NCBI GenBank assembly: GCA_017471445.1
Contig: JAFUTJ010000008.1
Location: 1 to 46,381, forward strand
Length of the DNA: 46,381 bases
Direction of reading: 5' to 3'
From: Alphaproteobacteria bacterium
GTDB taxonomy: Bacteria > Pseudomonadota > Alphaproteobacteria > Rs-D84
The notes beneath the pieces are model-generated. The model was not told the DNA's origin. It ran no database searches and saw only the letters and a program-made list of their open reading frames with translations. A program made the position numbers and the translations under genes. Positions 1 through 46,381 of this stretch are shown here, piece by piece; the first letter of the stretch is position 1, and the number at the start of each line of letters is the position of its first letter.

Positions 1-105
1 CCACCGTTTTTTTGTGCACGGGTAAAGGAAAATAAAATGGCGGATTTCTGGGGTTTTGTAAAAACAATTTGTGCACCAAAAAAACGGTGGTTTTTTGGTG
101 CACGG
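1..105. mobile_element. Putative invertible translation-start cassette, copy 1 (left site cut by window edge)
   Basis: Core CCACCG at 1-6 and inverted core CGGTGG at 85-90, 78 bp apart; + strand AAAGGA RBS and ATG at 37 reading MADFWGFVKTICAPKKRWFFGAR; near-identical to 22664-22768 and 41339-41443; target gene would lie left of the window. Confidence 0.75.
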
Positions 106-127: not shown

Positions 128-156
128 ATTATACCGCATTCACGCGTTTTTGGCAA
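128..156 (-). promoter_or_regulatory. sigma70-like promoter upstream of cassette copy 1
   Basis: Minus strand TTGCCA-17 bp-TATAAT. Confidence 0.8.
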
Positions 157-168
157 TATGTTTTTTAA

Positions 169-966
169 CTAATTCACCGGCACTAATTTCCCACCCTGCC
201 CACGTGTGGCGTTAATCCAGCACACGCTGCCACCGCGTGGTACGGCCATGGCGTATTTTGTGTGCTTTCCCGCATATATATTTATTCCGTTCATTGCGGT
301 GTCACCAATCCGACACAGTGGCAAACACCGGTCATCGGATGTATGACCATACCCCGCATCACATTCCCATGGGCAATCGCCAACATCCGGTGTGCCGGGA
401 CCGGTATAGTACGCATCTGCCGGTGCATTTGTACATTTTCTTAATATGGTTGAATAATACTGATTTACTACATTTGCCACGTAATAACCGGCAAATGCCC
501 GTCTGTATAAAACCCGTTGAAATTTCGTATAGCCACCCGTACTCAGATTATAATAAAAAGATATGGCGTAAGTATGTGCTTCGTCGTAAATAACATCCCG
601 AACAACATAGCCACAGTCTGTTACGGCGATAATGTTCCGGCCCGCCGTAAAATAATAGGTTTCAACCTCGGCTTTCATTTTACTATAATCTGGGTTGGTA
701 AGGGGGACATATTGCGATATCAGGGTCTTAATTTGTTCTGTGGACATATTTTGTTCGGGACATGCGTGTCGTGCATCATCGCCCGGACAATAATATTTAT
801 CAGAACATTCCGTGCAAGAACCGGTATCATCCAACCAATATCCCTTGGCACACGTTGCGGCATGGGCCGTGCCGACAGCACATGCAACAATCAGTACCCA
901 AATACCCAACGCCAAATCAACCGAATGGCGCGATATAAACGGTCGAATCACAAACAATGCTGTCAT
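169..966 (-). CDS. Secreted Cys-rich variable protein, paralog A (265 aa, own RBS, no cassette)
   Basis: AAAAAGGGAAAAAAG-ATG at 966; signal peptide ending VGTAHA; YCPGDD motif; conserved C-terminus CTNAP...CPWECDAGYGHTSDDRCLPLCRIG...GGKLVPVN. Confidence 0.85.
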   Translation of the reverse strand: MTALFVIRPFISRHSVDLALGIWVLIVACAVGTAHAATCAKGYWLDDTGSCTECSDKYYCPGDDARHACPEQNMSTEQIKTLISQYVPLTNPDYSKMKAEVETYYFTAGRNIIAVTDCGYVVRDVIYDEAHTYAISFYYNLSTGGYTKFQRVLYRRAFAGYYVANVVNQYYSTILRKCTNAPADAYYTGPGTPDVGDCPWECDAGYGHTSDDRCLPLCRIGDTAMNGINIYAGKHTKYAMAVPRGGSVCWINATRGQGGKLVPVN

Positions 967-998
967 CTTTTTTCCCTTTTTATAAATTAAAAAATCCC

Positions 999-1172
999 CC
1001 GCAAAATCGGTGGTTGGAGGTTCATAACTATTACTCATTACAATAGCGTGCTTATTCAATATATTCACAGCCCTCCAACCCCGACGAAACTGGAATTGGA
1101 GAATATTTGCCCAACAACGTGGCCAAACATATGAGTAATGGGTTATGACGCCCAAACACGACTTTACGTGCC
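999..1172 (-). ncRNA. Rod-shaped structured RNA candidate (6S RNA-like or regulatory leader)
   Basis: Minus strand CGTAAAGTCG/CGATTTTGCG and TCATAACCCATTACTCAT/ATGAGTAATAGTTATGA closing stems, central bubble, apical CTCCAATTCC/GGGGTTGGAG stem; own promoter upstream. Confidence 0.5.
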
Positions 1173-20769: not shown

Positions 20770-21852
20770 ATGAAAAAGATTGGAATTATGACAACAGGCG
20801 GCGATTGTTCGGGCCTGAATGCGGTAATTGCGAATATTGTACGCGCGGCGCAAATTCGCGGGTGGCGCGTTGTCGGCATAACCGACGGCACCGACGGGTT
20901 AACCACACACACGCCAAGTGTTGTTGACCTTGATATAATCAACATGCCGCCAACAATTTCACGCACATCGGGCAGTATTCTGGGCAACGGCCACGCCGGC
21001 ATTATGAATTTCGAAACCGCCACACGTTCTGGCCAATTACGCGCATTTAATAACAATCTGAAAACGGCAATCCGAAAATTAAAACTGGACGTAATAATTT
21101 TGGTTGGTGGCAACGGCAGTTTATCGTTAGCCTGGACAAATCGCGATATTTATTCCGATGTTCAATTGATTTGCATTCCAAAGACCATTGACATGGATAT
21201 TCCATGCACAAGCCGTACAATTGGTTTTGATACCGCGGTTCAACAACTGGTTTCATACTGTGATCAATTAATATTAACGGCACGCAGCCATCACAGATGG
21301 TTTGTCGTTCAATCAATGGGTCGCGATTGCGGGCAATTGGCATTAAATGCCGGCGTGGCGGCGGGTGTGCACGCGATATTAATACCAGAAATTAAGTTTG
21401 ATATGAATGCTTTGATTGCGCATATTAAGCATGCCCCAACCGATTACGGTATAATCATTGTCGCCGAAGGAATCCGCATTCGGGGACATTCGGGGCAACC
21501 TGCGGAAATTATTTCGCGCAAATTAACCGCCGCCGGAATTCCAAACCGCACGGCATTTCCTGGCCATATTCAACGCGCCGGCGACACCACCGCGGCCGAC
21601 CGTATATTGGCCATCCAAATGGCCGATGCCACAATACGCGCGATTGAAAACAACGAAACATATGTTATGACGGCATACGAAAATGACCAGTGTCGAACAA
21701 TTACACTGGCTGATTTTTACGCCGCCGGACGTACCGTTGACGACCCGAATATATCGGGGCTGAAAACATCGAATGCGTATGTAACCCCAGATAATCCACT
21801 GTTACATGTTGTTGAAAATATGGGCATTTATATTGGTGAAAGACGAAAATAA
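20770..21852 (+). CDS. pfkA: 6-phosphofructokinase (PfkA family)
   Basis: IGIMTTGGDCSGLNA, GGNGS, PKTIDMD, MGRDCG, GHIQRAG. Confidence 0.9.
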   Translation: MKKIGIMTTGGDCSGLNAVIANIVRAAQIRGWRVVGITDGTDGLTTHTPSVVDLDIINMPPTISRTSGSILGNGHAGIMNFETATRSGQLRAFNNNLKTAIRKLKLDVIILVGGNGSLSLAWTNRDIYSDVQLICIPKTIDMDIPCTSRTIGFDTAVQQLVSYCDQLILTARSHHRWFVVQSMGRDCGQLALNAGVAAGVHAILIPEIKFDMNALIAHIKHAPTDYGIIIVAEGIRIRGHSGQPAEIISRKLTAAGIPNRTAFPGHIQRAGDTTAADRILAIQMADATIRAIENNETYVMTAYENDQCRTITLADFYAAGRTVDDPNISGLKTSNAYVTPDNPLLHVVENMGIYIGERRK

Positions 21853-21937
21853 AATCATGCATATGTGACGTCTGCATTAAATCCGTGGCCCAGGGATGCA
21901 TGGTTTGGTGTAATGTCTTTTATTGTATATTATTCAA

Positions 21938-22669
21938 CTAATTCACCGGGAACAATTTGCCGCCATCACCGCGTTTTGCACTAATCCAACACGTCGCGCC
22001 ATTACGCGGAACGGCCATGGCGTATTTAGTATGCTTTTCCGCATATATATTTATACCATTCATTGCCGTGTCGCCAATCCGACACAATGGCAAACACCGG
22101 TCGTCGGATGTGTGGCCGAATCCATCATCACATTCCCACGGGCAATCGCCAACATCCGGTGTGCCCGCACCGGTATAGTGCGCATTTGTCGGCGCATTTG
22201 TGCATGGATTTACGTTTTTATAATTCGTGGTACCAGGCTTGTTCAGATTTGATACGTAGTAACCAGTTTGTGCAGCAGAACACAGACCGTTATAGTTTAC
22301 AACCGTATAATCTGATGATTCCATGGAATAGCCTAACACAATATACCTATCCGCGCATGTATCATCTTGCGCCTGACGTACACGCAGACCACACGCCATT
22401 ATTGATGTTGGGCCAACAGAAGCGTATGTTGATGTTTTTTTCAACATATTGTAATCTGAAATATTCGGTATCAAATTCAGAACATCCGACTTGGTCAAAT
22501 TGGTTTCTGGACATTCATAACTTAAATCATCCCCCGGACAGTAATATGACGAGATACAATTTGTACATTCACCATTGTTCATGTATTGCCCCGCGTCGCA
22601 TGTTGCGGCGCGGGCATTGGTTAAAATGCACATGCCAAACATCACACCCCATGCACAAAAAAACCACCG
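21938..22669 (-). CDS. Secreted Cys-rich variable protein, paralog B; start codon supplied only by inverted cassette (259 aa when ON)
   Basis: Fixed part begins RWFFCAWGVMFGMCILTNARA-ATC; YCPGDD; conserved C-terminus; no RBS+start facing the gene in this orientation. Confidence 0.85.
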   Translation of the reverse strand, partial: RWFFCAWGVMFGMCILTNARAATCDAGQYMNNGECTNCISSYYCPGDDLSYECPETNLTKSDVLNLIPNISDYNMLKKTSTYASVGPTSIMACGLRVRQAQDDTCADRYIVLGYSMESSDYTVVNYNGLCSAAQTGYYVSNLNKPGTTNYKNVNPCTNAPTNAHYTGAGTPDVGDCPWECDDGFGHTSDDRCLPLCRIGDTAMNGINIYAEKHTKYAMAVPRNGATCWISAKRGDGGKLFPVN

Positions 22670-22768
22670 TTTTTTTGTGCACAGGTAAAGGAAAATAAAA
22701 TGGCGGATTTCTGGGGTTTTGTAAAAACAATTTGTGCACCAAAAAAACGGTGGTTTTTTGGTGCACGG
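22652..22768. mobile_element. Putative invertible translation-start cassette, copy 2 (OFF orientation)
   Basis: Left site TGCACAAAAAAA-CCACCG-TTTTTTTGTGCA (perfect 12-6-12 palindrome, 22652-22681); right site 22734-22766 with inverted core; RBS+ATG at 22700 on + strand. Confidence 0.8.
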
Positions 22769-22790
22769 CTTATTTCCCTGTACGCCATAT

Positions 22791-22819
22791 ATCATACCGC
22801 ATTCACGCATTTTTGACAA
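22791..22819 (-). promoter_or_regulatory. sigma70-like promoter upstream of cassette copy 2
   Basis: Minus strand TTGTCA-17 bp-TATGAT. Confidence 0.8.
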
Positions 22820-22857
22820 TATGTTTTTTGATAAAAAAACATTACATAAACATATTG

Positions 22858-23199
22858 TTATATTGCGCCACGACACCAATGGATGTGCCAACCACATACA
22901 ATTATCACATCAAAACGCGCATTTCCGCGCCACTGTGTTTTTGCAATATACGTTTCAGCCGCACGACGCAGGCGCACAATTTGCGCGGGTGTAATTGCAT
23001 CCCATGCGGCGGCAACGGTTGGGCGTGCCTTTACCTCTATAAACACCAGGGTATTTTTATTCCGTGCAATAATATCAATTTCGGCACGGGCCGTTTGGCG
23101 GCCGGTTACGTATCGCCGCCGCACTATGCGAAACCCATGCATGCGCAGCATCCACACCGCGCGCCATTCTGCCAATAAACCGGTTTTATATGAATTCAT
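22858..23199 (-). CDS. yraN: YraN family (UPF0102) protein
   Basis: GLLAE, EIDIIAR, LVFIEVKAR, RFDVI. Confidence 0.9.
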   Translation of the reverse strand: MNSYKTGLLAEWRAVWMLRMHGFRIVRRRYVTGRQTARAEIDIIARNKNTLVFIEVKARPTVAAAWDAITPAQIVRLRRAAETYIAKTQWRGNARFDVIIVCGWHIHWCRGAI

Positions 23200-23200
23200 A

Positions 23201-23983
23201 TTAAAATGCATAATTCTTGGCGCGGAAATTTTCACGTGCCGCCTGGACATTTTTGGCCGCATCCGACGCGTTGCGCCCATTGTCCACCAAATCCAGTGCA
23301 CCATAATACGCCGTCATCATCGGATCATATGAATTATTTGATGACACCCACGTATCACCACCTGCGTTTGGTGCGCCATATTTATCCAATACATCTTGCC
23401 AAAACTTTAATATCTTTTTTTCGCGCTGGTTAGAAAATTTGTCGGCATCCCCTTCTAAATCATTAACATCGTTATTGTAAACAACGCGCCACACAACATT
23501 ATCGGTTGCATTACTGGTAAAATAAACCGTTATTGTTTCACCCGTGGCAGCCCGTTCAAGGTGCAATTGCGACGCATACAGCAACCCACGATTACGCGCC
23601 AAACTGGTTATGCATTTTTCCAATTCAGACGGGTTATACGCCTGTTGCTGGCGACATTCATAGTCCAGGTTGTATTTCCATTCTTGGGCAATGGTGTATA
23701 TTATGCTGTCTTTCTTGCGCGGCGCATACAGGCCACCATTATGAAAAAACAGTGTATGAATATCGTCAAACCCCATCCCCAGCATTATTCCCGCAATATC
23801 AAACGCCCCAACATTCGCAGGTGTGGCCCCGACATCCATCGCAACCGAACCAACCGTAACATCGTTATCATCACTGTCCGTTATTGCAAAGTTATTCAGG
23901 TCAAACGGGTCATCGTCTGCGCGCGCGCAAATTGCGCCACCGCATAACATCAAAACCGATAAAAATTTCAATTTCATATTCAT
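23201..23983 (-). CDS. Exported hypothetical protein
   Basis: Signal peptide ending CARA, 260 aa, co-transcribed with upstream VirB8-like genes. Confidence 0.75.
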   Translation of the reverse strand: MNMKLKFLSVLMLCGGAICARADDDPFDLNNFAITDSDDNDVTVGSVAMDVGATPANVGAFDIAGIMLGMGFDDIHTLFFHNGGLYAPRKKDSIIYTIAQEWKYNLDYECRQQQAYNPSELEKCITSLARNRGLLYASQLHLERAATGETITVYFTSNATDNVVWRVVYNNDVNDLEGDADKFSNQREKKILKFWQDVLDKYGAPNAGGDTWVSSNNSYDPMMTAYYGALDLVDNGRNASDAAKNVQAARENFRAKNYAF

Positions 23984-23991
23984 CCGTTTTT

Positions 23992-24654
23992 TTATTCCAG
24001 ATAATTTTTTACATCCGTAACCCGAAACCGAAAAAATGTAATCGGGTCATATTGCTTTTTCAATCTGTCTTGCACAATTTCATCATCCCACGTTCCGGGA
24101 AGATAGCGCACCCCCAGGTACATTTTGCCGCGCGTAATTATTGGACTTTCGGCCAATTTATTCGGATGCAACCATGTCTGTAATTCATATTCAACAACCC
24201 AATACCCGCCATCTGTTTCTGTATCGGTTGTATACAATATTTCACCAATTACACGAACGCTACGCATCGCATTTTTTTCGGCCAATGATAAAATCGTTCG
24301 CGCCTCGCCATCACGCCATTGGTTGAAAACACCCGGCACAGAAATCATCTCCATTGTGCTTTTTTTACGATTTTCACCGTCAATACGCGTACGGATGTTT
24401 TCAGAATCCGGTGTTACATAGAAATATTCTGTCACGAACCGACGTATTAACATGTCGCGCACATACCTATCGCCAATTTCAGATAACGCCATTGGTACAC
24501 CTGGCCGATATTCTGATGCATTGTTCGGTTGAAAAAAATATGGTTGAACAACGAAATGCCGCCCAGAATCAAACATCGCACACGTCACCACCAACATGCC
24601 GCAAATTATCAGCATTAATAACAAAGCAATCAACCCAATAACAAATTTCCGCAT
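23992..24654 (-). CDS. VirB8-like single-pass membrane protein
   Basis: N-terminal TM, RRFVTEYF helix, terminal DPITFFRFRVTD resembling the VirB8 NPxG-F-V strand. Confidence 0.55.
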   Translation of the reverse strand: MRKFVIGLIALLLMLIICGMLVVTCAMFDSGRHFVVQPYFFQPNNASEYRPGVPMALSEIGDRYVRDMLIRRFVTEYFYVTPDSENIRTRIDGENRKKSTMEMISVPGVFNQWRDGEARTILSLAEKNAMRSVRVIGEILYTTDTETDGGYWVVEYELQTWLHPNKLAESPIITRGKMYLGVRYLPGTWDDEIVQDRLKKQYDPITFFRFRVTDVKNYLE

Positions 24655-25359
24655 TTAATTTATCCTGTATGCATTAAATTCAGAAACATAGAACCCCAGT
24701 GTTTGCCAATAATATTCCGTATTACGCGCGACACGAACATACGCAACAACCTGAATATCGCCATGTATTGCGGAACGCACCGTTGCATAGACCTGCCACG
24801 TGCCACCATTACGTGTCGGTTCAGATAATGGAATAACCTTTAATGTATTATATACAATACGCCATGCATCACCACCCAATGCACGCGCCGAATATTCCGG
24901 AATAACATCATTCACAAATGTGTTATATAACTCGTCCCCAGAGGCACAATATATTGCACATGCCCCATTTCCATATATCACGGTACCATCCGGCACACAA
25001 TCACGCGCACGGTCGCATTTGCGCCATAAATCTGCATTTTTAGATTGTGTTTCCGATATTGTCATCCAATCAACTGCAAAACGTCCCACCAAAGACTGCT
25101 GAACCGCGTATTCCGGTGATAAAACCGCAACACCATTCACGCCGCCATCATCTGTAATTGTATTCCAATTCCCTGTGCGCGAATCCACCGATATTATACA
25201 TGGACGTACAGACACACTGCGCATTGTCCAGACAACAACCACACACGCCACAACCATCAACGCAAATACAACCATTGTTCCAATGGCCATAAATCGCGAT
25301 ATCGCAATGCGTCGCCCGGCGGGAAACACATTTGTGTTAAAATCATCTGGATATTTCAC
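24655..25359 (-). CDS. VirB8-like single-pass membrane protein
   Basis: GTG start, TM then VRPCIISVDSRTG (cf. VirB8 PYVIxVD...G), C-terminal LGFYVSEF. Confidence 0.6.
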   Translation of the reverse strand: MKYPDDFNTNVFPAGRRIAISRFMAIGTMVVFALMVVACVVVVWTMRSVSVRPCIISVDSRTGNWNTITDDGGVNGVAVLSPEYAVQQSLVGRFAVDWMTISETQSKNADLWRKCDRARDCVPDGTVIYGNGACAIYCASGDELYNTFVNDVIPEYSARALGGDAWRIVYNTLKVIPLSEPTRNGGTWQVYATVRSAIHGDIQVVAYVRVARNTEYYWQTLGFYVSEFNAYRIN

Positions 25360-27053: not shown

Positions 27054-29324
27054 TTAGAACTGGGTTTCGAACGATAACAAGAATCGACGTTCGCGGTCAT
27101 ATTTTGCCATCTTCATCGGCCACCCCCACGAAAAGTTCATCGGCCCCATTGGTGTATTCCAATAAATACCAACACCAATTGATGTGCGAATATCGTTATC
27201 GATATAATTTTCTTTGTCATAGAAATAATTTTCGGCCGCCGGCGGTTTACCCAAAATACCATAATCCGCAAAGACAAATCCCTTTACCTGATATTCGTCC
27301 GGTATAAATACCGGGAAATTCATCTGGGTTGAACCGTTTATTTTCCACAACCCACCCAACGAATACGTACGATATGCCCAGTTTCGGGAACCAACACCTG
27401 CAATATCAAACCCACGCAACGATTCCCCACCCAAGAAATAACGATAAACACGCGTTATATAATCATCGCCAATTGGTTGTATATACCCAAAATCTAATGA
27501 TGTACGTAATTGCCACCGGTCTGACAAAAACTTTACCATTGCGGTTATATCACCATTGTAACGCATAAATTCTTCGGTACCACCAAACCCAGTATATGCC
27601 ACACCAACGTTACCAACAATACCGGTGTGTGTATTCTGCTCAAAATTCGTGTCCAGGTTATAATACTTAAAATTCGTACCCAATGTGTACAACGTCGCGT
27701 CATGCCACCCAGATAATTGAATGTCATAGTTTTGGTCAAACGCCGCCGACATGCGTACAGTCTGGGTCCAATGGTCAGTCAGTCGCCATCCCATACGGCC
27801 CGCAACAGTTAATGAGTCACGGTCGTAACCAAAACTGCCCAAAGAAGAATAATCATACATTGTATACGAAACGTCAAATCCGGCAGACAACGCACGCCCA
27901 AACAGATATGGTTCGGTAAAACTGAACAATGCCTGTTTTTGATATTGCGCAATTGACCCACGCAGTTGTACAACTTGGCCGCGACCCATAAAATTACTTT
28001 CTGTTATACCGGCATCAACCATAAAACCATTGATATTTGACCAACCAAACCCACCTGATAATTCACCGGTTGGTTGTTCTTCTACCTTGACATCCAGGTT
28101 CATCATATTCGCATCGGCAACACGCGTTGGCACCATTTGCACATCCTTGAAATACCGCGTATGCATCAGGTTTTGACGGCCCTCTTCAATCGTCTGCAAT
28201 GAAAACGGGTCACCCGCACGCATCGGTAACGATTGTTCAATAACACTATCAAACGTACGCACATTACCCAATATATTTATTGTATTCAGGTATATGCGAT
28301 TTGTTTTCTGAATCACAAATTGAAAATCAATTGTATGCGCGTCTGAATTTCTAACCGGCACCGGTTCAACATTTATGAATGCATAACCATGTTCGGCAAC
28401 CACACTGCGTAACGCAGACATTGTTGCATCAACCATATCAACGTTATAAGTATCACCACGTGACATTTTTAATGCACGCTGTAATTGCGAATCTGGCACA
28501 TCGGGGAATGGATTCTTAACCGTTATTTCGCCAAATTTATATTTTTCCCCTTCGTCAACGGTGAACACCACAGAATAATATTCCCGATCAGGCGTAAATT
28601 CCCCAGCGGTATTCTTTACCTGAAAATCAGCATAGCCATTGCGCATATAAAACTGACGCAACATCTGCGCATCGTATTGTATACGATCTTCATCAAATAC
28701 ATCAAATTGCGTCATTATGCGCCACCACGCATGTTCACGCGATAATATTTCCCCACGTAACGTACGTGAACGAAACCGCCGATTACCGGAAAACTTTATA
28801 CTGCGAATATATGTCGGGTGACCTTCGCTAATCTCGTAAACAACGTTTACCCGATTATCATCCAACAAGATTTTTTTCGGTTCAATTTTTGTTCCAAAAA
28901 AACCCTTGCGCTGATAAACTGTCAACATACGGCTGACATCGCCACCGACAACAGATTCATCAAACGACGCACGTTCTTTTAACCGTATTTCTTTTTTCAG
29001 GTCATCTGTTGATATTTCATCATTACCTTCTATCGTCACTTGGCCAACCGTGGGCGATTCTGTAACATCTATCTTTAACACATTGCCAGACATGCGAACG
29101 TTAATTTTGGAAAAATACCCACTTTCTTGTAATTTTTTTGCGATTTGGTTCGCACGCGATTCGCCGACGTTTTCGCCAATCCGCACATCGGCCAATATTC
29201 GCACCGATTCCGCATCCATACGTTCATTGCCACGCACATCAATACGCGACACCGTTTCGGCCCCAGCCGCCCAAATTGCACCAAACGCAACAATAACAGC
29301 AATATCAAAACATCTTTTCATCAT
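27054..29324 (-). CDS. bamA: Outer membrane protein assembly factor BamA
   Basis: POTRA repeats, LRGF motif, TPMGPM, terminal Phe. Confidence 0.96.
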   Translation of the reverse strand: MMKRCFDIAVIVAFGAIWAAGAETVSRIDVRGNERMDAESVRILADVRIGENVGESRANQIAKKLQESGYFSKINVRMSGNVLKIDVTESPTVGQVTIEGNDEISTDDLKKEIRLKERASFDESVVGGDVSRMLTVYQRKGFFGTKIEPKKILLDDNRVNVVYEISEGHPTYIRSIKFSGNRRFRSRTLRGEILSREHAWWRIMTQFDVFDEDRIQYDAQMLRQFYMRNGYADFQVKNTAGEFTPDREYYSVVFTVDEGEKYKFGEITVKNPFPDVPDSQLQRALKMSRGDTYNVDMVDATMSALRSVVAEHGYAFINVEPVPVRNSDAHTIDFQFVIQKTNRIYLNTINILGNVRTFDSVIEQSLPMRAGDPFSLQTIEEGRQNLMHTRYFKDVQMVPTRVADANMMNLDVKVEEQPTGELSGGFGWSNINGFMVDAGITESNFMGRGQVVQLRGSIAQYQKQALFSFTEPYLFGRALSAGFDVSYTMYDYSSLGSFGYDRDSLTVAGRMGWRLTDHWTQTVRMSAAFDQNYDIQLSGWHDATLYTLGTNFKYYNLDTNFEQNTHTGIVGNVGVAYTGFGGTEEFMRYNGDITAMVKFLSDRWQLRTSLDFGYIQPIGDDYITRVYRYFLGGESLRGFDIAGVGSRNWAYRTYSLGGLWKINGSTQMNFPVFIPDEYQVKGFVFADYGILGKPPAAENYFYDKENYIDNDIRTSIGVGIYWNTPMGPMNFSWGWPMKMAKYDRERRFLLSFETQF

Positions 29325-30382
29325 AGGTTCAACCCAAATACACGCGCTAAATCATTCCACATCGTCAATACGAACAATGCACCAATTAAAATCCAACCGC
29401 ATAAAATTGCAATTTCCATGCCACGCCCACCCAGTTTACGACGCGTGACCCCTTCTATTATCAAAATCAATAAATAACCGCCATCCAACACCGGCAACGG
29501 CAACAAATTTATTACACCCAAATTTACCGACAATAACGCGATTATTGATATCAACGCAAAGAACCCGGCCGCCATTGCCTGGCCCGATACCTGGGCAATG
29601 GTAATGAACGACCCCAATTGCTTAGACGACCGTTCGCCGGTCACAATCTGCTTTAACACAATTAATAAAGTCTTTGATTGATGGTATGTTTCGCGCGCAC
29701 CGGAATATATGGCGCCAAAGAACCCTTTCTTGCGAAATTCGGTTTTGCTGCCGTCGGCAACCAATCCCCAACGTTCTGCGGGCGACAATTTCACCTGGAC
29801 CAATTTTTCACCACGCAAAATCAAAACGTGTGCGTCACGATGTGCGGCCAATTCCTTGGCCAATACCAATTCGCCCCAATTTGTAATTTTTTCATTATCA
29901 ATTCGCAAAATTGTATCACCCGGTTTTACACCTGCATTAAAAGCAACCGATTCTTGAATAACCTGGGCCACAACCGGTAATTGAACATTACGTGGTTTGA
30001 ACATAAACAATGCAGAATAAATTCCCCACGCCAACATGAAATTCATAAATACACCGGCGGCAATAATAATAAATTGTTTCCATGCCGGCGCAGATAAATA
30101 ATGCCCAACCTGCTTTGCGCGTGGCAACGCAACATATTTTGCACGATTAAACATATCTTCTTGGCCATAAATAGACACATACCCCCCCAGTGGTAGGCAT
30201 GCAATTTGCCATGTTGTATTATGTCTGTCGTGCCATTTGAATAACGCGGGCCCAAAACCGATTGAAAACGTATCAACACGCACACCCGCCCAACGCGCCG
30301 CCAGAAAGTGCCCCAATTCGTGCACGAACACAACAATTCCCAAAACAATCAATAACGCAACAACAGTCAAAACAATATGCAT
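29321..30382 (-). CDS. rseP: Intramembrane metalloprotease RseP
   Basis: HELGH, FSIGFGP, PDZ region, NLLPLPVLDGG. Confidence 0.96.
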   Translation of the reverse strand: MHIVLTVVALLIVLGIVVFVHELGHFLAARWAGVRVDTFSIGFGPALFKWHDRHNTTWQIACLPLGGYVSIYGQEDMFNRAKYVALPRAKQVGHYLSAPAWKQFIIIAAGVFMNFMLAWGIYSALFMFKPRNVQLPVVAQVIQESVAFNAGVKPGDTILRIDNEKITNWGELVLAKELAAHRDAHVLILRGEKLVQVKLSPAERWGLVADGSKTEFRKKGFFGAIYSGARETYHQSKTLLIVLKQIVTGERSSKQLGSFITIAQVSGQAMAAGFFALISIIALLSVNLGVINLLPLPVLDGGYLLILIIEGVTRRKLGGRGMEIAILCGWILIGALFVLTMWNDLARVFGLNL

Positions 30383-40573: not shown

Positions 40574-41344
40574 CTAATTCACCGGAACTAATTTCCCGCC
40601 GATGTCGCGTATGGCACTAATCCAACACATACCATCGCCGCGTGGAACGGCCATGGCATATTTTGTGTGCTTTTCGGCGTATATATTTATACCGTTCATT
40701 GCGGTTTCACCAATCCGGCACAGCGGCAAACACCGGTCGTCGGATGTGTGACCGAATCCATCATCGCATTCCCACGGGCAATCGTTCGCGTTCTTAATCG
40801 TACCATCCGGGCTGTCCGGTGTGCCGGGACCGGTATAGTGCGCGTTTGCCGGTGCGTTGGTGCATGGCTTTACGCCATTGTACCAAACCTTATACGTGGT
40901 ACCCATATATGGCGACAGATAATAACCGGTTCCCGCCGCATAATAGTGTGTGCATTTAACGGGGTATTCTTGGCTGGTTGGGTCGTATGCAACCTCTGAC
41001 AGGCAACTATAATTCTTAGTATAAAAATATGCACTGCGATGACAACAGGTTATCCTGTCACGCTCGTAATACGTTGTGCCATTATATACAAATTGCGTCC
41101 GCCAAGAATTGATCCATACTTCGCCGACTGTAAAAGTATCATCAAAAAACTGTTCATATTTTCCCGCCCATTTATCTTCGGGACATTCGTATTGTGCGTC
41201 ATCGCCCGGACAATAAGATGTTTTGCCGCAATATGTACATTCGTTTTTAGAATTCAGATAAAAATTTGCCGGACAATTTGCGGCATGGGCATTGGTTAAA
41301 ATGCACATGCCAAACACCACACCCCGTGCACCAAAAAACCACCG
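40574..41344 (-). CDS. Secreted Cys-rich variable protein, paralog C; start codon supplied only by inverted cassette (272 aa when ON)
   Basis: Fixed part begins RWFFGARGVVFGMCILTNAHA-ANC; YCPGDD; conserved C-terminus. Confidence 0.85.
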   Translation of the reverse strand, partial: RWFFGARGVVFGMCILTNAHAANCPANFYLNSKNECTYCGKTSYCPGDDAQYECPEDKWAGKYEQFFDDTFTVGEVWINSWRTQFVYNGTTYYERDRITCCHRSAYFYTKNYSCLSEVAYDPTSQEYPVKCTHYYAAGTGYYLSPYMGTTYKVWYNGVKPCTNAPANAHYTGPGTPDSPDGTIKNANDCPWECDDGFGHTSDDRCLPLCRIGETAMNGINIYAEKHTKYAMAVPRGDGMCWISAIRDIGGKLVPVN

Positions 41345-41443
41345 TTTTTTTGTGCACGGATAAAGGAAAATAAAATGGCGGATTTCTGGGGTTTTGTAAA
41401 AACAATTTGTGCACCAAAAAAACGGTGGTTTTTTGGTGCACGG
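41324..41443. mobile_element. Putative invertible translation-start cassette, copy 3 (OFF orientation)
   Basis: Perfect 29-bp inverted repeat 41324-41352 / 41415-41443; RBS AAAGGA and ATG at 41375 on + strand. Confidence 0.82.
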
Positions 41444-41465
41444 CTTATTTCCCTGTACGCCACGC

Positions 41466-41494
41466 ATTGTAACATGTTCGGCGATTTTTTTCAA
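41466..41494 (-). promoter_or_regulatory. sigma70-like promoter upstream of cassette copy 3
   Basis: Minus strand TTGAAA-17 bp-TACAAT with extended -10 TG. Confidence 0.8.
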
Positions 41495-45627: not shown

Positions 45628-46381
45628 CTAATTCACCGGGACCAATTTACCGCCCTGCCCTTTTTCTGCACTAATCCAACACGTTGCGCCACCGCGTGGT
45701 ACGGCCATGGCGTATTTGGTATGCTTTTCGGCGTATATGTTTATACCGTTCATTGCGGTTTCACCAATCCGGCATAACGGTAAACACCGGTCGTCGGATG
45801 TATGACCGAATCCATCATCACATTCCCATTCACAATTTGGTGTGCCATCGGTTGTATTTGCGGCGGTATAGTGTGCATTTGCCGGCGCGTTTGTGCATGG
45901 CATGCAATCTGATGCCGCGGCGGCGGTGTCCGTTGCCGTATATGTGCCCGCCGGGCATGCGGTATGTTCAACATCATTTGCACCAACATAAAAACCGAAA
46001 CCTGCCGCAATACAAATATCATGCGCCAATAACAGGTTTAAGTTCGCAAACTGAATATTCCAAGATGTTGGTTGTTTGCCCGTTACATTTGCATAATAGC
46101 CCGCATCACACTTGGTTAAATTATATTTGTACTGGCAATTGGTACCGCCAATATATTCCCCATTTAACACACCACAGTTATATGTTGTTATTCCGTGCGC
46201 AATCGGGACATCTGCAAATGTGGCACGGCAATATTTTGCCGCGGTAATAACATCAATGCTTGTATTAATGTAATATTGCTGAAAATAAATATAGTGTGGA
46301 TTAGATGTTGTAACAATTGGACATAGGTGCCGCGTATCATCGCCAGGGCAATAAAAATTGTAATTCTGTGATATATCGGCC
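45628..46381 (-). CDS. Secreted Cys-rich variable protein, paralog D (5' end beyond window)
   Basis: Frame stays open to the edge (...ADISQNYNFYCPGDDTRHLCP...); extra CPAGTY...C repeat; conserved C-terminus. Confidence 0.85.
   Translation of the reverse strand, partial: ADISQNYNFYCPGDDTRHLCPIVTTSNPHYIYFQQYYINTSIDVITAAKYCRATFADVPIAHGITTYNCGVLNGEYIGGTNCQYKYNLTKCDAGYYANVTGKQPTSWNIQFANLNLLLAHDICIAAGFGFYVGANDVEHTACPAGTYTATDTAAAASDCMPCTNAPANAHYTAANTTDGTPNCEWECDDGFGHTSDDRCLPLCRIGETAMNGINIYAEKHTKYAMAVPRGGATCWISAEKGQGGKLVPVN

Follow-up and report, generated by a model that had tools for sequence, protein, structure and literature searches.

A putative invertible start-codon cassette repeated across the genome of an uncultured alphaproteobacterium

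How could a gene be expressed if it has no start codon of its own and the ribosome-binding site and ATG beside it face the other way? This question is raised by a locus, here called locus B, in a contig of an alphaproteobacterium of the order Rs-D84 (GenBank assembly GCA_017471445.1, contig JAFUTJ010000008.1). We refer to positions 1-46,381 of this contig as the window; it is C19:1-46381 of the assembly, G000, which comprises 910,822 bp in 23 contigs. Throughout, C-numbers denote contigs of G000, and G-, L- and P-numbers are our labels for genomes, loci and protein-collection records. The answer that we regard as probable, though well short of certain, is that window positions 22651-22766 are one OFF copy of a multi-copy invertible translation-initiation cassette, which works by the mechanism proposed below.

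The only long gene at locus B, that of paralog B, lies on the minus strand (Table 1). Next to it are two asymmetric cores in opposite orientation, with 78 bp between them and 84 bp from core start to core start, and the sites around these cores form an inverted repeat pair whose 29-nt arms are 93% complementary. The gene-proximal site is also coding sequence, in that its minus strand encodes the KKRWFF of the signal peptide. Inversion between the cores, carried out by script, produced an open frame of 259 amino acids (aa) that starts at the ATG at 22700 and runs through KKRWFF into a hydrophobic stretch ending in A-R-A. This is the same frame and N-terminus that had been proposed in the original prediction, an earlier reading of the sequence alone, and the cores, spacing, ATG direction and promoter that it described were all found in the sequence. 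No -35/-10 pair was seen by eye inside the 84-bp segment, and a promoter scan of the window likewise lists none there. A search of the window against Rfam returned three tRNAs and no match at the cassette. In the OFF state the frame of paralog B is open back through the cassette and the promoter (22642-22897, minus strand), and gene callers therefore give truncated starts (MFGMC.., P0002) or read-through open reading frames (P0080). Annotation at OFF loci such as B is misleading.

The mechanism that we propose is as follows. A fixed sigma-70-type promoter (22819-22791, minus strand) would drive transcription across the cassette and on into the start-less gene, and a site-specific recombinase would exchange strands in both palindromes, within or beside the cores CCACCG and CGGTGG, flipping the interior. 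In the ON state the mRNA would present AAAGGA, a 7-nt gap and ATG, and the frame would pass through KKRWFF into the hydrophobic part and an A-x-A cleavage site; a cysteine-rich protein is predicted to be made and exported. In the OFF state the mRNA would hold the antisense of the cassette, which would leave it with neither a ribosome-binding site nor a start codon, and the promoter-proximal hairpin and T-rich stretch may also end transcription early. Because the same sites occur at 21 start-codon cassettes and two promoter cassettes in the genome, one enzyme could set many loci independently.

Several lines of evidence indicate that the cassette is a recurrent structure. Within the window, a degenerate 33-nt site pattern has three matches, versus none in 100 dinucleotide shuffles, and three copies of a ~166-232-nt module, 90-98% alike, are present. 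A genome-wide search for sites (A5-8, either core, T5-8) found 42 in G000, and all 42 cores are identical. Sixteen site pairs are spaced 83-84 bp and two, on C10 and C18, are spaced 95 bp and are promoter cassettes; five single sites are half cassettes cut by contig ends (on C12, C13, C16, C18 and the start of C19, which is window base 1), and one site, C21:26889, has a degenerate partner core, CGGTCA. The start-codon cassettes number 21, four of them ON (C1:43380, C2:1772, C15:3285 and C15:20709) and 17 OFF; 11 of the OFF cassettes have both flanks, and the other six, cut by contig ends, carry OFF-type junctions. Each of the 21 has the promoter module on one side and, wherever the other side is present, a signal-peptide-coding gene start on that side. 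When turned ON, all 15 cassettes with both flanks are predicted to yield an in-frame ATG and a signal peptide, and the frame is intact in every one of the 11 OFF copies. The interior occurs in the variants ..VKTICAP.. and ..VKNNLCT.., between which an inserted A and a missing C compensate and the frame is kept. A -35/-10 pair with a 17-bp spacer is read from consensus 24 nt upstream of the promoter-proximal site at 14 of 14 assessable loci, and two sequence variants of this fixed promoter, TTGCCA..TATGAT and TTGAAA..TACAAT, both keep the consensus. An extra C marks the tail-side inner arm. It is found on the tail's side in every case and moves with the interior, which places the crossover inside the A-tract, the core or the T-tract. 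The anatomy, the copy number, the presence of both orientations among loci and the reading frame are direct observations.

Conservation falls away from the cassette. The mean pairwise identity across 13 loci (two loci cut by contig ends were left out) is 97% for the promoter-proximal site and 91% for both the interior and the gene-proximal site, declining to 75% for the 80-nt promoter region, 71% for 51 nt of signal-peptide sequence and 32% for the 240 nt of gene that follow. The repeat is a conserved 5' control module, not a randomly inserted element. The original prediction had contrasted a conserved cassette with a divergent gene, had expected dispersed copies and had foreseen one reusable switch heading the members of one gene family. 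The contrast holds across the 13 loci compared, with sites and interiors 91-97% alike and gene bodies at 32%, and the count of 21 start-codon cassettes from 42 sites, in both orientations, bears out the dispersal. The idea of a single switch for a single family needs amendment: every copy with both flanks (15/15) does stand at an in-frame signal-peptide gene start, but two protein families are headed rather than one, the same sites also flank promoter cassettes, and many family members have no cassette.

At least six contig ends lie inside cassettes (window 1-6 and the ends of C11, C12, C13, C16 and C18), C12 and C13 open with an identical 109 nt, and C19 begins exactly at a core; the assembly seems to have been broken by the repeat or by mixed orientations. 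The module at C21:26874-27003 has the usual promoter and first site and a different interior, ON in direction, that brings its own Shine-Dalgarno sequence and ATG. The 131-aa protein behind it shows, by eye, a signal peptide and hydrophobic stretches and has no match in Pfam; the module may be a locked-ON derivative.

Does the segment invert? The same interior occurs both ways round between the same two kinds of flank (4 ON versus 11 OFF at loci with both flanks). In other assemblies ON forms have been called as whole open reading frames (P0017, P0060, P0062, P0070, P0092 and P0099) and OFF forms as read-through frames (P0010, P0011, P0061, P0063, P0080, P0081, P0113 and P0114). P0060 (ON) and P0063 (OFF), which come from different assemblies, are identical at 250 of 253 residues after the cassette. 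From these patterns we infer that this is a real multi-copy translational inverton with active 84-bp cassettes, and that inversion would occur at a given locus such as B.

A number of observations pull the other way. The three residues that differ between P0060 and P0063 come directly after the site, so the pair may represent near-identical paralogs or a chimeric assembly and not one locus seen twice, and this ambiguous pair was the only candidate when same-locus ON/OFF pairs were sought in the protein clusters. Paralog B is OFF in G000 and in four further contigs on record (P0080); at least five other loci keep the same state in every assembly on record, although these assemblies may not be independent. 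No contig with both orientations at one locus occurs among the assemblies on record, which, being consensus assemblies, cannot reveal minority orientations. Four runs, all from one study, carry locus B, and in their Logan contigs (window 21500-24000) the unique sequence ends at 22594 and resumes at 22779; cassette B appears there only in short multi-copy pieces that are uninformative on orientation. Finally, the promoter, ribosome-binding site and signal peptide are consensus readings.

Other explanations must be weighed against the same evidence. The switch could be real and yet mainly transcriptional, like that of cwpV in Clostridioides difficile, with the OFF hairpin and T-rich stretch terminating transcription and the start codon playing a secondary part. 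A scan flagged the minus-strand hairpin at 22766..22734, followed by AAATTGTTTT, as terminator-like in the OFF orientation, while the sequence after this hairpin is GGGTAAAGGA in the ON orientation; two strong hairpins form when the OFF-state leader RNA is folded (z = -4.7), and cwpV provides a precedent for a promoter upstream of an invertible region. However, the T-run begins after AAA and is interrupted, as in a weak terminator, the spacing of Shine-Dalgarno sequence and ATG in the cassette is good, and no other start of the gene gives a usable signal peptide. The frame, moreover, is kept at 15 of 15 loci, compensating indels included, which would be needless in a pure terminator switch. 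We consider a mainly transcriptional switch improbable, while noting that terminator and translational control can act together. Slipped-strand switching at the A6-7/T6-7 tracts was also considered and rejected: the tracts are not long, and wherever length varies the frame is restored by compensation.

The cassettes could also be frozen relics of a module that spread with its gene family, inverted a few times in the past and does not switch today. The constant orientation of B and at least five other loci across recorded assemblies, with no direct heterogeneity, is what relics would show, and C21:26889, with its degenerate second core CGGTCA and altered interior, indicates that sites can decay. 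It is difficult to reconcile relics with 42 identical cores and sites 91-97% alike above gene bodies that fall to 32%, with intact frames in 11 of 11 OFF copies, or with both orientations among close paralogs. Two other species have this core around promoters, in both orientations, candidate recombinases are intact, and at least six contig ends fall inside cassettes, though repeats alone could explain the last point. Relics are, in our judgement, quite improbable. Scarcely credible is a selfish repeat, resembling a miniature inverted-repeat transposable element (MITE) and inserted widely, even though the element is short, multi-copy and bounded by terminal inverted repeats. Random placement, or placement out of frame, had been named in the original prediction as the mark of such a repeat; instead, each of the 15 copies that have both flanks shows the same promoter module on one side and a signal-peptide start on the other, in frame when ON. 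The compensating indels of the interior likewise argue against randomly placed MITE-like copies, no target-site duplication is visible in the flanks, and the repeated unit is the entire 5' module of ~230 nt.

The translational inverton that we favor requires a recombinase, and G000 offers two kinds. Its tyrosine recombinase genes number three (Phage_integrase domain), two of them Xer-like and one encoding a 406-aa integrase. Resolvase-domain matches number nine, four of which are intact small proteins of 198-241 aa with a C-terminal helix-turn-helix (Resolvase plus HTH_7/HTH_38). These small serine recombinases are encoded at C6:63411-64133, C3:113946-114563, C9:35675-36271 and C19:74879-75499. 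The inverting enzyme is most likely, from sequence comparison, a small serine recombinase of the resolvase/invertase family, with C6:63411-64133 as the first candidate. The best solved relative of the small serine recombinases is the Gin invertase (E 2.7e-12). The site core, AAAACC-AC-CGTTTT, resembles the consensus of the Din family, and its closest counterparts are the pixR and mix sites (..AAACC AA CGTTT..), which are included among the Din-family sites in Table 3 of PMC3241671. The fit to the 26-bp Din consensus, written TTC---AAAC- -A -GTTT---GAA, is limited to the inner part; GTGCAC stands in place of the outer TTC/GAA, and AC forms the centre. A scan of the whole genome for inverted repeats at short range, at least 18 nt long, yielded the 18 cassette pairs and four others. 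Two of the four, hix/gix-like pairs on C3, one before a lipoprotein-like gene and the other between divergent genes, constitute a second inverton class in G000, and their position beside a serine recombinase gene suggests that the small serine recombinase family runs small invertons in this genome. G175, a relative that carries the core sites, has a single small serine recombinase besides one large serine recombinase and two Xer-like proteins. This small enzyme is 100% identical in blastp to the copy on contig C4 of G267 and 73% identical to the product of G000 C6:63411-64133, and it is because the sole small serine recombinase of a site-bearing genome is its relative that the C6-type enzyme is put first.

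This assignment has its difficulties. G057 has an 83% ortholog of the candidate recombinase yet only two isolated sites, no recombinase gene adjoins any cassette, and 13-bp arms with a 6-bp centre suit tyrosine recombinases equally well. The 84 bp between crossover points is far below the ~1-kb segments of classical Hin-type systems, and is shorter even than the ~100-bp loop of the Hin invertasome, which needs HU (PMC3798978). A tyrosine recombinase, Xer-like or the 406-aa integrase, is unlikely but deserves consideration, since 13-bp inverted arms around an asymmetric 6-bp centre are the usual layout of tyrosine sites, and such genes are at hand: three with the Phage_integrase domain in G000 and two Xer-like genes each in G175 and G267. 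Xer1 drives the vpma inversions of Mycoplasma agalactiae. The Xer-like pair here, however, is the usual XerC/XerD, present in all four relatives checked whether or not they have cassettes, and the third tyrosine gene sits in an apparent mobile element beside a large serine recombinase. The likeness of the core to Din serine invertase sites, and the hix-like repeats that adjoin another small serine recombinase of G000, also favor a serine enzyme.

To place the cassette among its relatives, we compared related genomes. The GroEL of this organism is 84-91% identical to that of gut metagenome-assembled genomes labelled Alphaproteobacteria or Candidatus Enterousia, and the lineage around Candidatus Enterousia, order Rs-D84, is described as uncultured and genome-reduced (PMC12306168). 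Of 301 sampled Rs-D84 genomes, 20 contain the 16-nt core pattern, and all of these belong to the genus of the window; a reversed control pattern gave at most one match per genome. Pairs spaced 83-84 bp are confined to G000 (42 sites), G267 (10 sites) and G175 (5 sites). In the congeneric species G175 and G267 the sites have GCCG/CGGC as outer arms and enclose a promoter, TTGAC(C/T/A)-18-TAT(A/T)AT (for example TTGACC-18-TATAAT), and the adjoining gene has its own start; at homologous genes in these genomes the promoter points toward the gene in L126 and away from it in L115. A blastn search of 30 relatives with the 191-nt module found no cassette, just 24-nt matches to its central motif in eight genomes, and a pattern search did not find the start-codon cassette in the 300 other genomes of the order either. 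The start-codon cassette appears, from this distribution of sequences, to be a derived form within an inverton family. The two 95-bp promoter cassettes of G000 have the same sites as the start-codon form. The one on C10 lies between two divergent secreted-protein genes that share a C-terminal domain, one of which has an OmpA-like part, a position that gives it the look of an either/or toggle.

The cassette forms all have a central motif in common, GGCGGATTTCTG(G/C)GG, at 23-24 nt from one site. It serves as promoter spacer, in either direction, in the promoter forms, and in the start-codon form the ATG abuts it. We tentatively suggest that a promoter inverton gave rise to the translational inverton of this species: the promoter hexamers decayed, an outside promoter took over, and the ATG beside the motif became the start. 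The motif would be the site of a DNA-bending or enhancer-like protein that makes an 84-bp inversion possible, and one invertase would set ~23 loci, giving combinatorial display from two surface families of ~60 genes; this whole scenario is a possibility, less likely to be right than wrong. The suggestion of a bending or enhancer-like protein comes from the position of the motif, whose distance of 23-24 nt from one site holds for each cassette type and for both directions relative to the promoter; such a protein would do here what Fis and HU do for Hin. Compared by eye with consensus sequences, the motif did not fit a sigma-54, IHF, Fis or MraZ site. Extended to ~24 nt, AAAATGGCGGATTTCTG(G/C)GGTTTT, it is found outside any cassette in seven congeneric genomes (L013-L018 and L020). 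A scan of metagenomes with the exact 19-nt motif returned 24 unrelated contigs of varied composition (L132-L155), none with recombination sites. The 19-mer copies in those contigs are often 50-60 nt upstream of a promoter-like site, and one is ~440 nt upstream of a 16S rRNA gene (L138).

The cassettes head two protein families. One, with 46 tblastn segments in G000, includes paralogs B and C; its members share an N-terminal module, C-x-AG-Y..C..C..YCPGDD, and a conserved C-terminal part, CPWECD..GHTSDDRCLPLCRIG..NIYAEKHTKYAMAVPR, on either side of a variable middle; the second family begins ELPENVKFCIPKQY and has 20 segments. Most members of both families are cassette-free, with an ordinary Shine-Dalgarno sequence, ATG and signal peptide. 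A large protein collection holds 54 homologs of paralog B, all unnamed, the closest from the same species, and relatives of B from other sources that are 29-40% identical bear ordinary signal peptides. Paralogs B and C have no match in Pfam, and their relatives gave sub-threshold matches to Ephrin_rec_like and TNFR-like domains and none above threshold. The structure model of B has a pLDDT of 88. A Foldseek search with this model against the PDB found nothing significant (best E 0.049, with TNF-receptor ectodomains at TM ~0.2), and the best Z in a VIA-align comparison with 48,161 chains, 5.6, is within the stated noise range of the tool. Judging from these sequences, the cassette-controlled product is probably a secreted or surface cysteine-rich protein, and the size and diversity of the families suggest that cassette-headed proteins may act as antigens.

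Two further observations concern these families. In P0100/P0113 (G000:C12:65-...), a cassette-headed protein, the N-terminal module is that of the ELPENVKF family and the CTNAPANAHYTG..CPWECD part is that of the other, a mixed layout that suggests that the two families exchange modules. A different conserved leader precedes cassette-free members, at window 967-1045 (minus strand) and ~25 other gene starts in G000. It consists, in order, of ..AACCTCCAACCAC(C/T)G.., a short hairpin, a T-run, an A-rich stretch, GGGGGAA and ATG; it has no Rfam match and looks like a 5' terminator or attenuator.

The coordinates of locus B, of the other family members in the window and of the additional repeat pairs in G000 are collected in Table 1. 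Cassette C is 18.7 kb from cassette B, and 5.1 kb separate it from the next one. Elsewhere in the window, a weak VirB8-like match (24655-25359, E 0.0058, below the cut-off) is found among the small secreted or membrane proteins of region 23201-25359, and homologs of BamA and RseP are encoded at 27054-30382.

Table 1. Positions of the cassettes, genes and repeat pairs discussed in the text (window coordinates, except where a contig is named)
Feature	Position	Strand	Description
Gene-proximal site, locus B	22651-22682		Palindrome ATGCAC-A7-CCACCG-T7-GTGCAC; core CCACCG 22664-22669
Promoter-proximal site, locus B	22734-22766		Palindrome GTGCACC-A7-CGGTGG-T6-GGTGCAC; core CGGTGG 22748-22753
Invertible interior, 51 nt	22683-22733	+	OFF orientation; contains Shine-Dalgarno sequence, ATG, codons 2-12 and central motif
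Shine-Dalgarno sequence AAAGGA	22687-22692	+	Inside interior, 7 nt before ATG
Start codon ATG	22700-22702	+	Faces away from the minus-strand gene
Central motif ATGGCGGATTTCTGGGG	22700-22716		Interior of B cassette; also present in promoter-type cassettes
Fixed promoter TTGTCA-17-TATGAT (predicted)	22819..22791	-	Outside the segment; reads toward cassette and gene; consensus scan 10/12
Start-less gene of paralog B	21938-22651	-	Body 21938-22650: remainder of signal peptide (..GMCILTNARA), then cysteine-rich protein with the C-terminal part conserved in the family; stop codon 21938-21940
Copy cut by contig start	1-156		OFF-type; core 1-6, ATG 37, promoter-proximal site 71-103, promoter TTGCCA-17-TATAAT 156..128; gene off contig
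Paralog C copy	41324-41494		OFF; core starts 41339 and 41423, ATG 41375 (+), promoter TTGAAA-17-TACAAT 41494..41466
Paralog C gene	40574-41323	-	
Fourth paralog	45628-46381	-	OFF cassette past window end, cores C19:46519 and C19:46603
Family member without cassette	169-966	-	Own Shine-Dalgarno sequence, ATG and ordinary signal peptide
95-bp promoter cassette	G000:C10:3497-3627		Same sites; interior TTGGAA-17-TAAAAT
95-bp promoter cassette	G000:C18:18086-18210		Same sites; interior TTGGAA-17-TAAAAT
Hix/gix-like pairs	C3:114551-114695, C3:116459-116615		Cores AAACCGTGGTT, AAACCGAGGTT; directly downstream of the 205-aa serine recombinase gene C3:113946-114563

An invertible switch is usually taken to be a promoter switch. 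The cargo here is no more than a ribosome-binding site and a start codon with a few further codons; the promoter does not move, and part of the signal peptide is translated from one of the sites. If the cassette is active, a gene could be switched at translation and export while still being transcribed. The implication for annotation is that promoter-centred surveys of invertons, and gene callers, will misread such loci, with OFF copies recorded as truncated or read-through open reading frames. If true, a distance of 84 bp between crossover points would be among the shortest of programmed inversions, and it raises the question of how the synapse is formed. The system would also offer an initial look at how the surface varies in the gut lineage around Candidatus Enterousia, which is uncultured and genome-reduced. 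An investment of ~23 switches and ~60 paralogous secreted-protein genes in 0.9 Mb suggests strong pressure from hosts, phages or partner cells.

How does this arrangement compare with known systems? In the inverton literature consulted, supplementary inverton lists aside, we found no account of a minimal invertible cassette made of a ribosome-binding site and start codon with a fixed promoter. The "partial intergenic invertons" of PhaVa (Chanin et al., PMC10028968), which are presented as long elements that exchange homologous domains in the manner of shufflons, and the gene-altering inversions of Milman et al. (PMC9881135) are alike in having one repeat inside the gene and one outside, so that inversion alters the 5' end of the coding sequence. 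The descriptions at hand differ in that they do not include so small a cassette behind a fixed promoter. In the vsa system of Mycoplasma pulmonis an expression site is inverted. Inversion at an expression site has also been described for MBA/UU172 in Ureaplasma (PMC3047005). As far as these accounts go, the Mollicutes systems share with ours silent, start-less genes, inversion that joins a start and N-terminal part to a body, and sites within coding sequence. They differ in that one expression site serves alternative bodies, whose expression is mutually exclusive, and chimeras arise, whereas each gene here keeps its own promoter and a private mini-cassette, so that loci can switch independently.

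The Din invertases Hin, Gin, Cin and Pin resemble the present system in their palindromic sites, in which an A-tract and C(C) precede a 2-bp centre and (C/G)G and a T-tract follow it (PMC3241671, PMC3798978), and small serine recombinases with a C-terminal helix-turn-helix are likewise present in the G000 genome. The differences are the GTGCAC in place of TTC..GAA, the centre AC in place of AA/GA, the many target loci, the segment length (84 bp as opposed to ~1-3 kb) and the lack of any known Fis-type enhancer here. In the Mpi system of Bacteroides fragilis (Coyne et al. 2003), the promoter-bearing segments are reportedly ~170-230 bp long. The likeness to Mpi lies in one class of repeat at many dispersed surface loci, presumably a single serine recombinase encoded elsewhere, and combinatorial states. 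The difference is the cargo, which is a promoter in Mpi and a translation start here, with the promoter outside; in our analysis only the two 95-bp cassettes of G000 and the cassettes of G175 and G267 are of the Mpi kind. The cwpV switch has a promoter upstream of a 195-bp invertible region that contains neither promoter nor open reading frame, and is presumed to act through a terminator (PMC2784873). On that description, it shares with the cassette a fixed upstream promoter, a small invertible leader element, a decision made after transcription initiation and a surface protein as product. It is, however, a single locus whose region has no open reading frame, whereas here there are 21 copies, a ribosome-binding site, ATG and 11 codons lie inside, and one site is in coding sequence. 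The cwpV enzyme is a tyrosine recombinase. The nearest known architecture is that of the cwpV switch, and the nearest known logic that of an Mpi-type global invertase.

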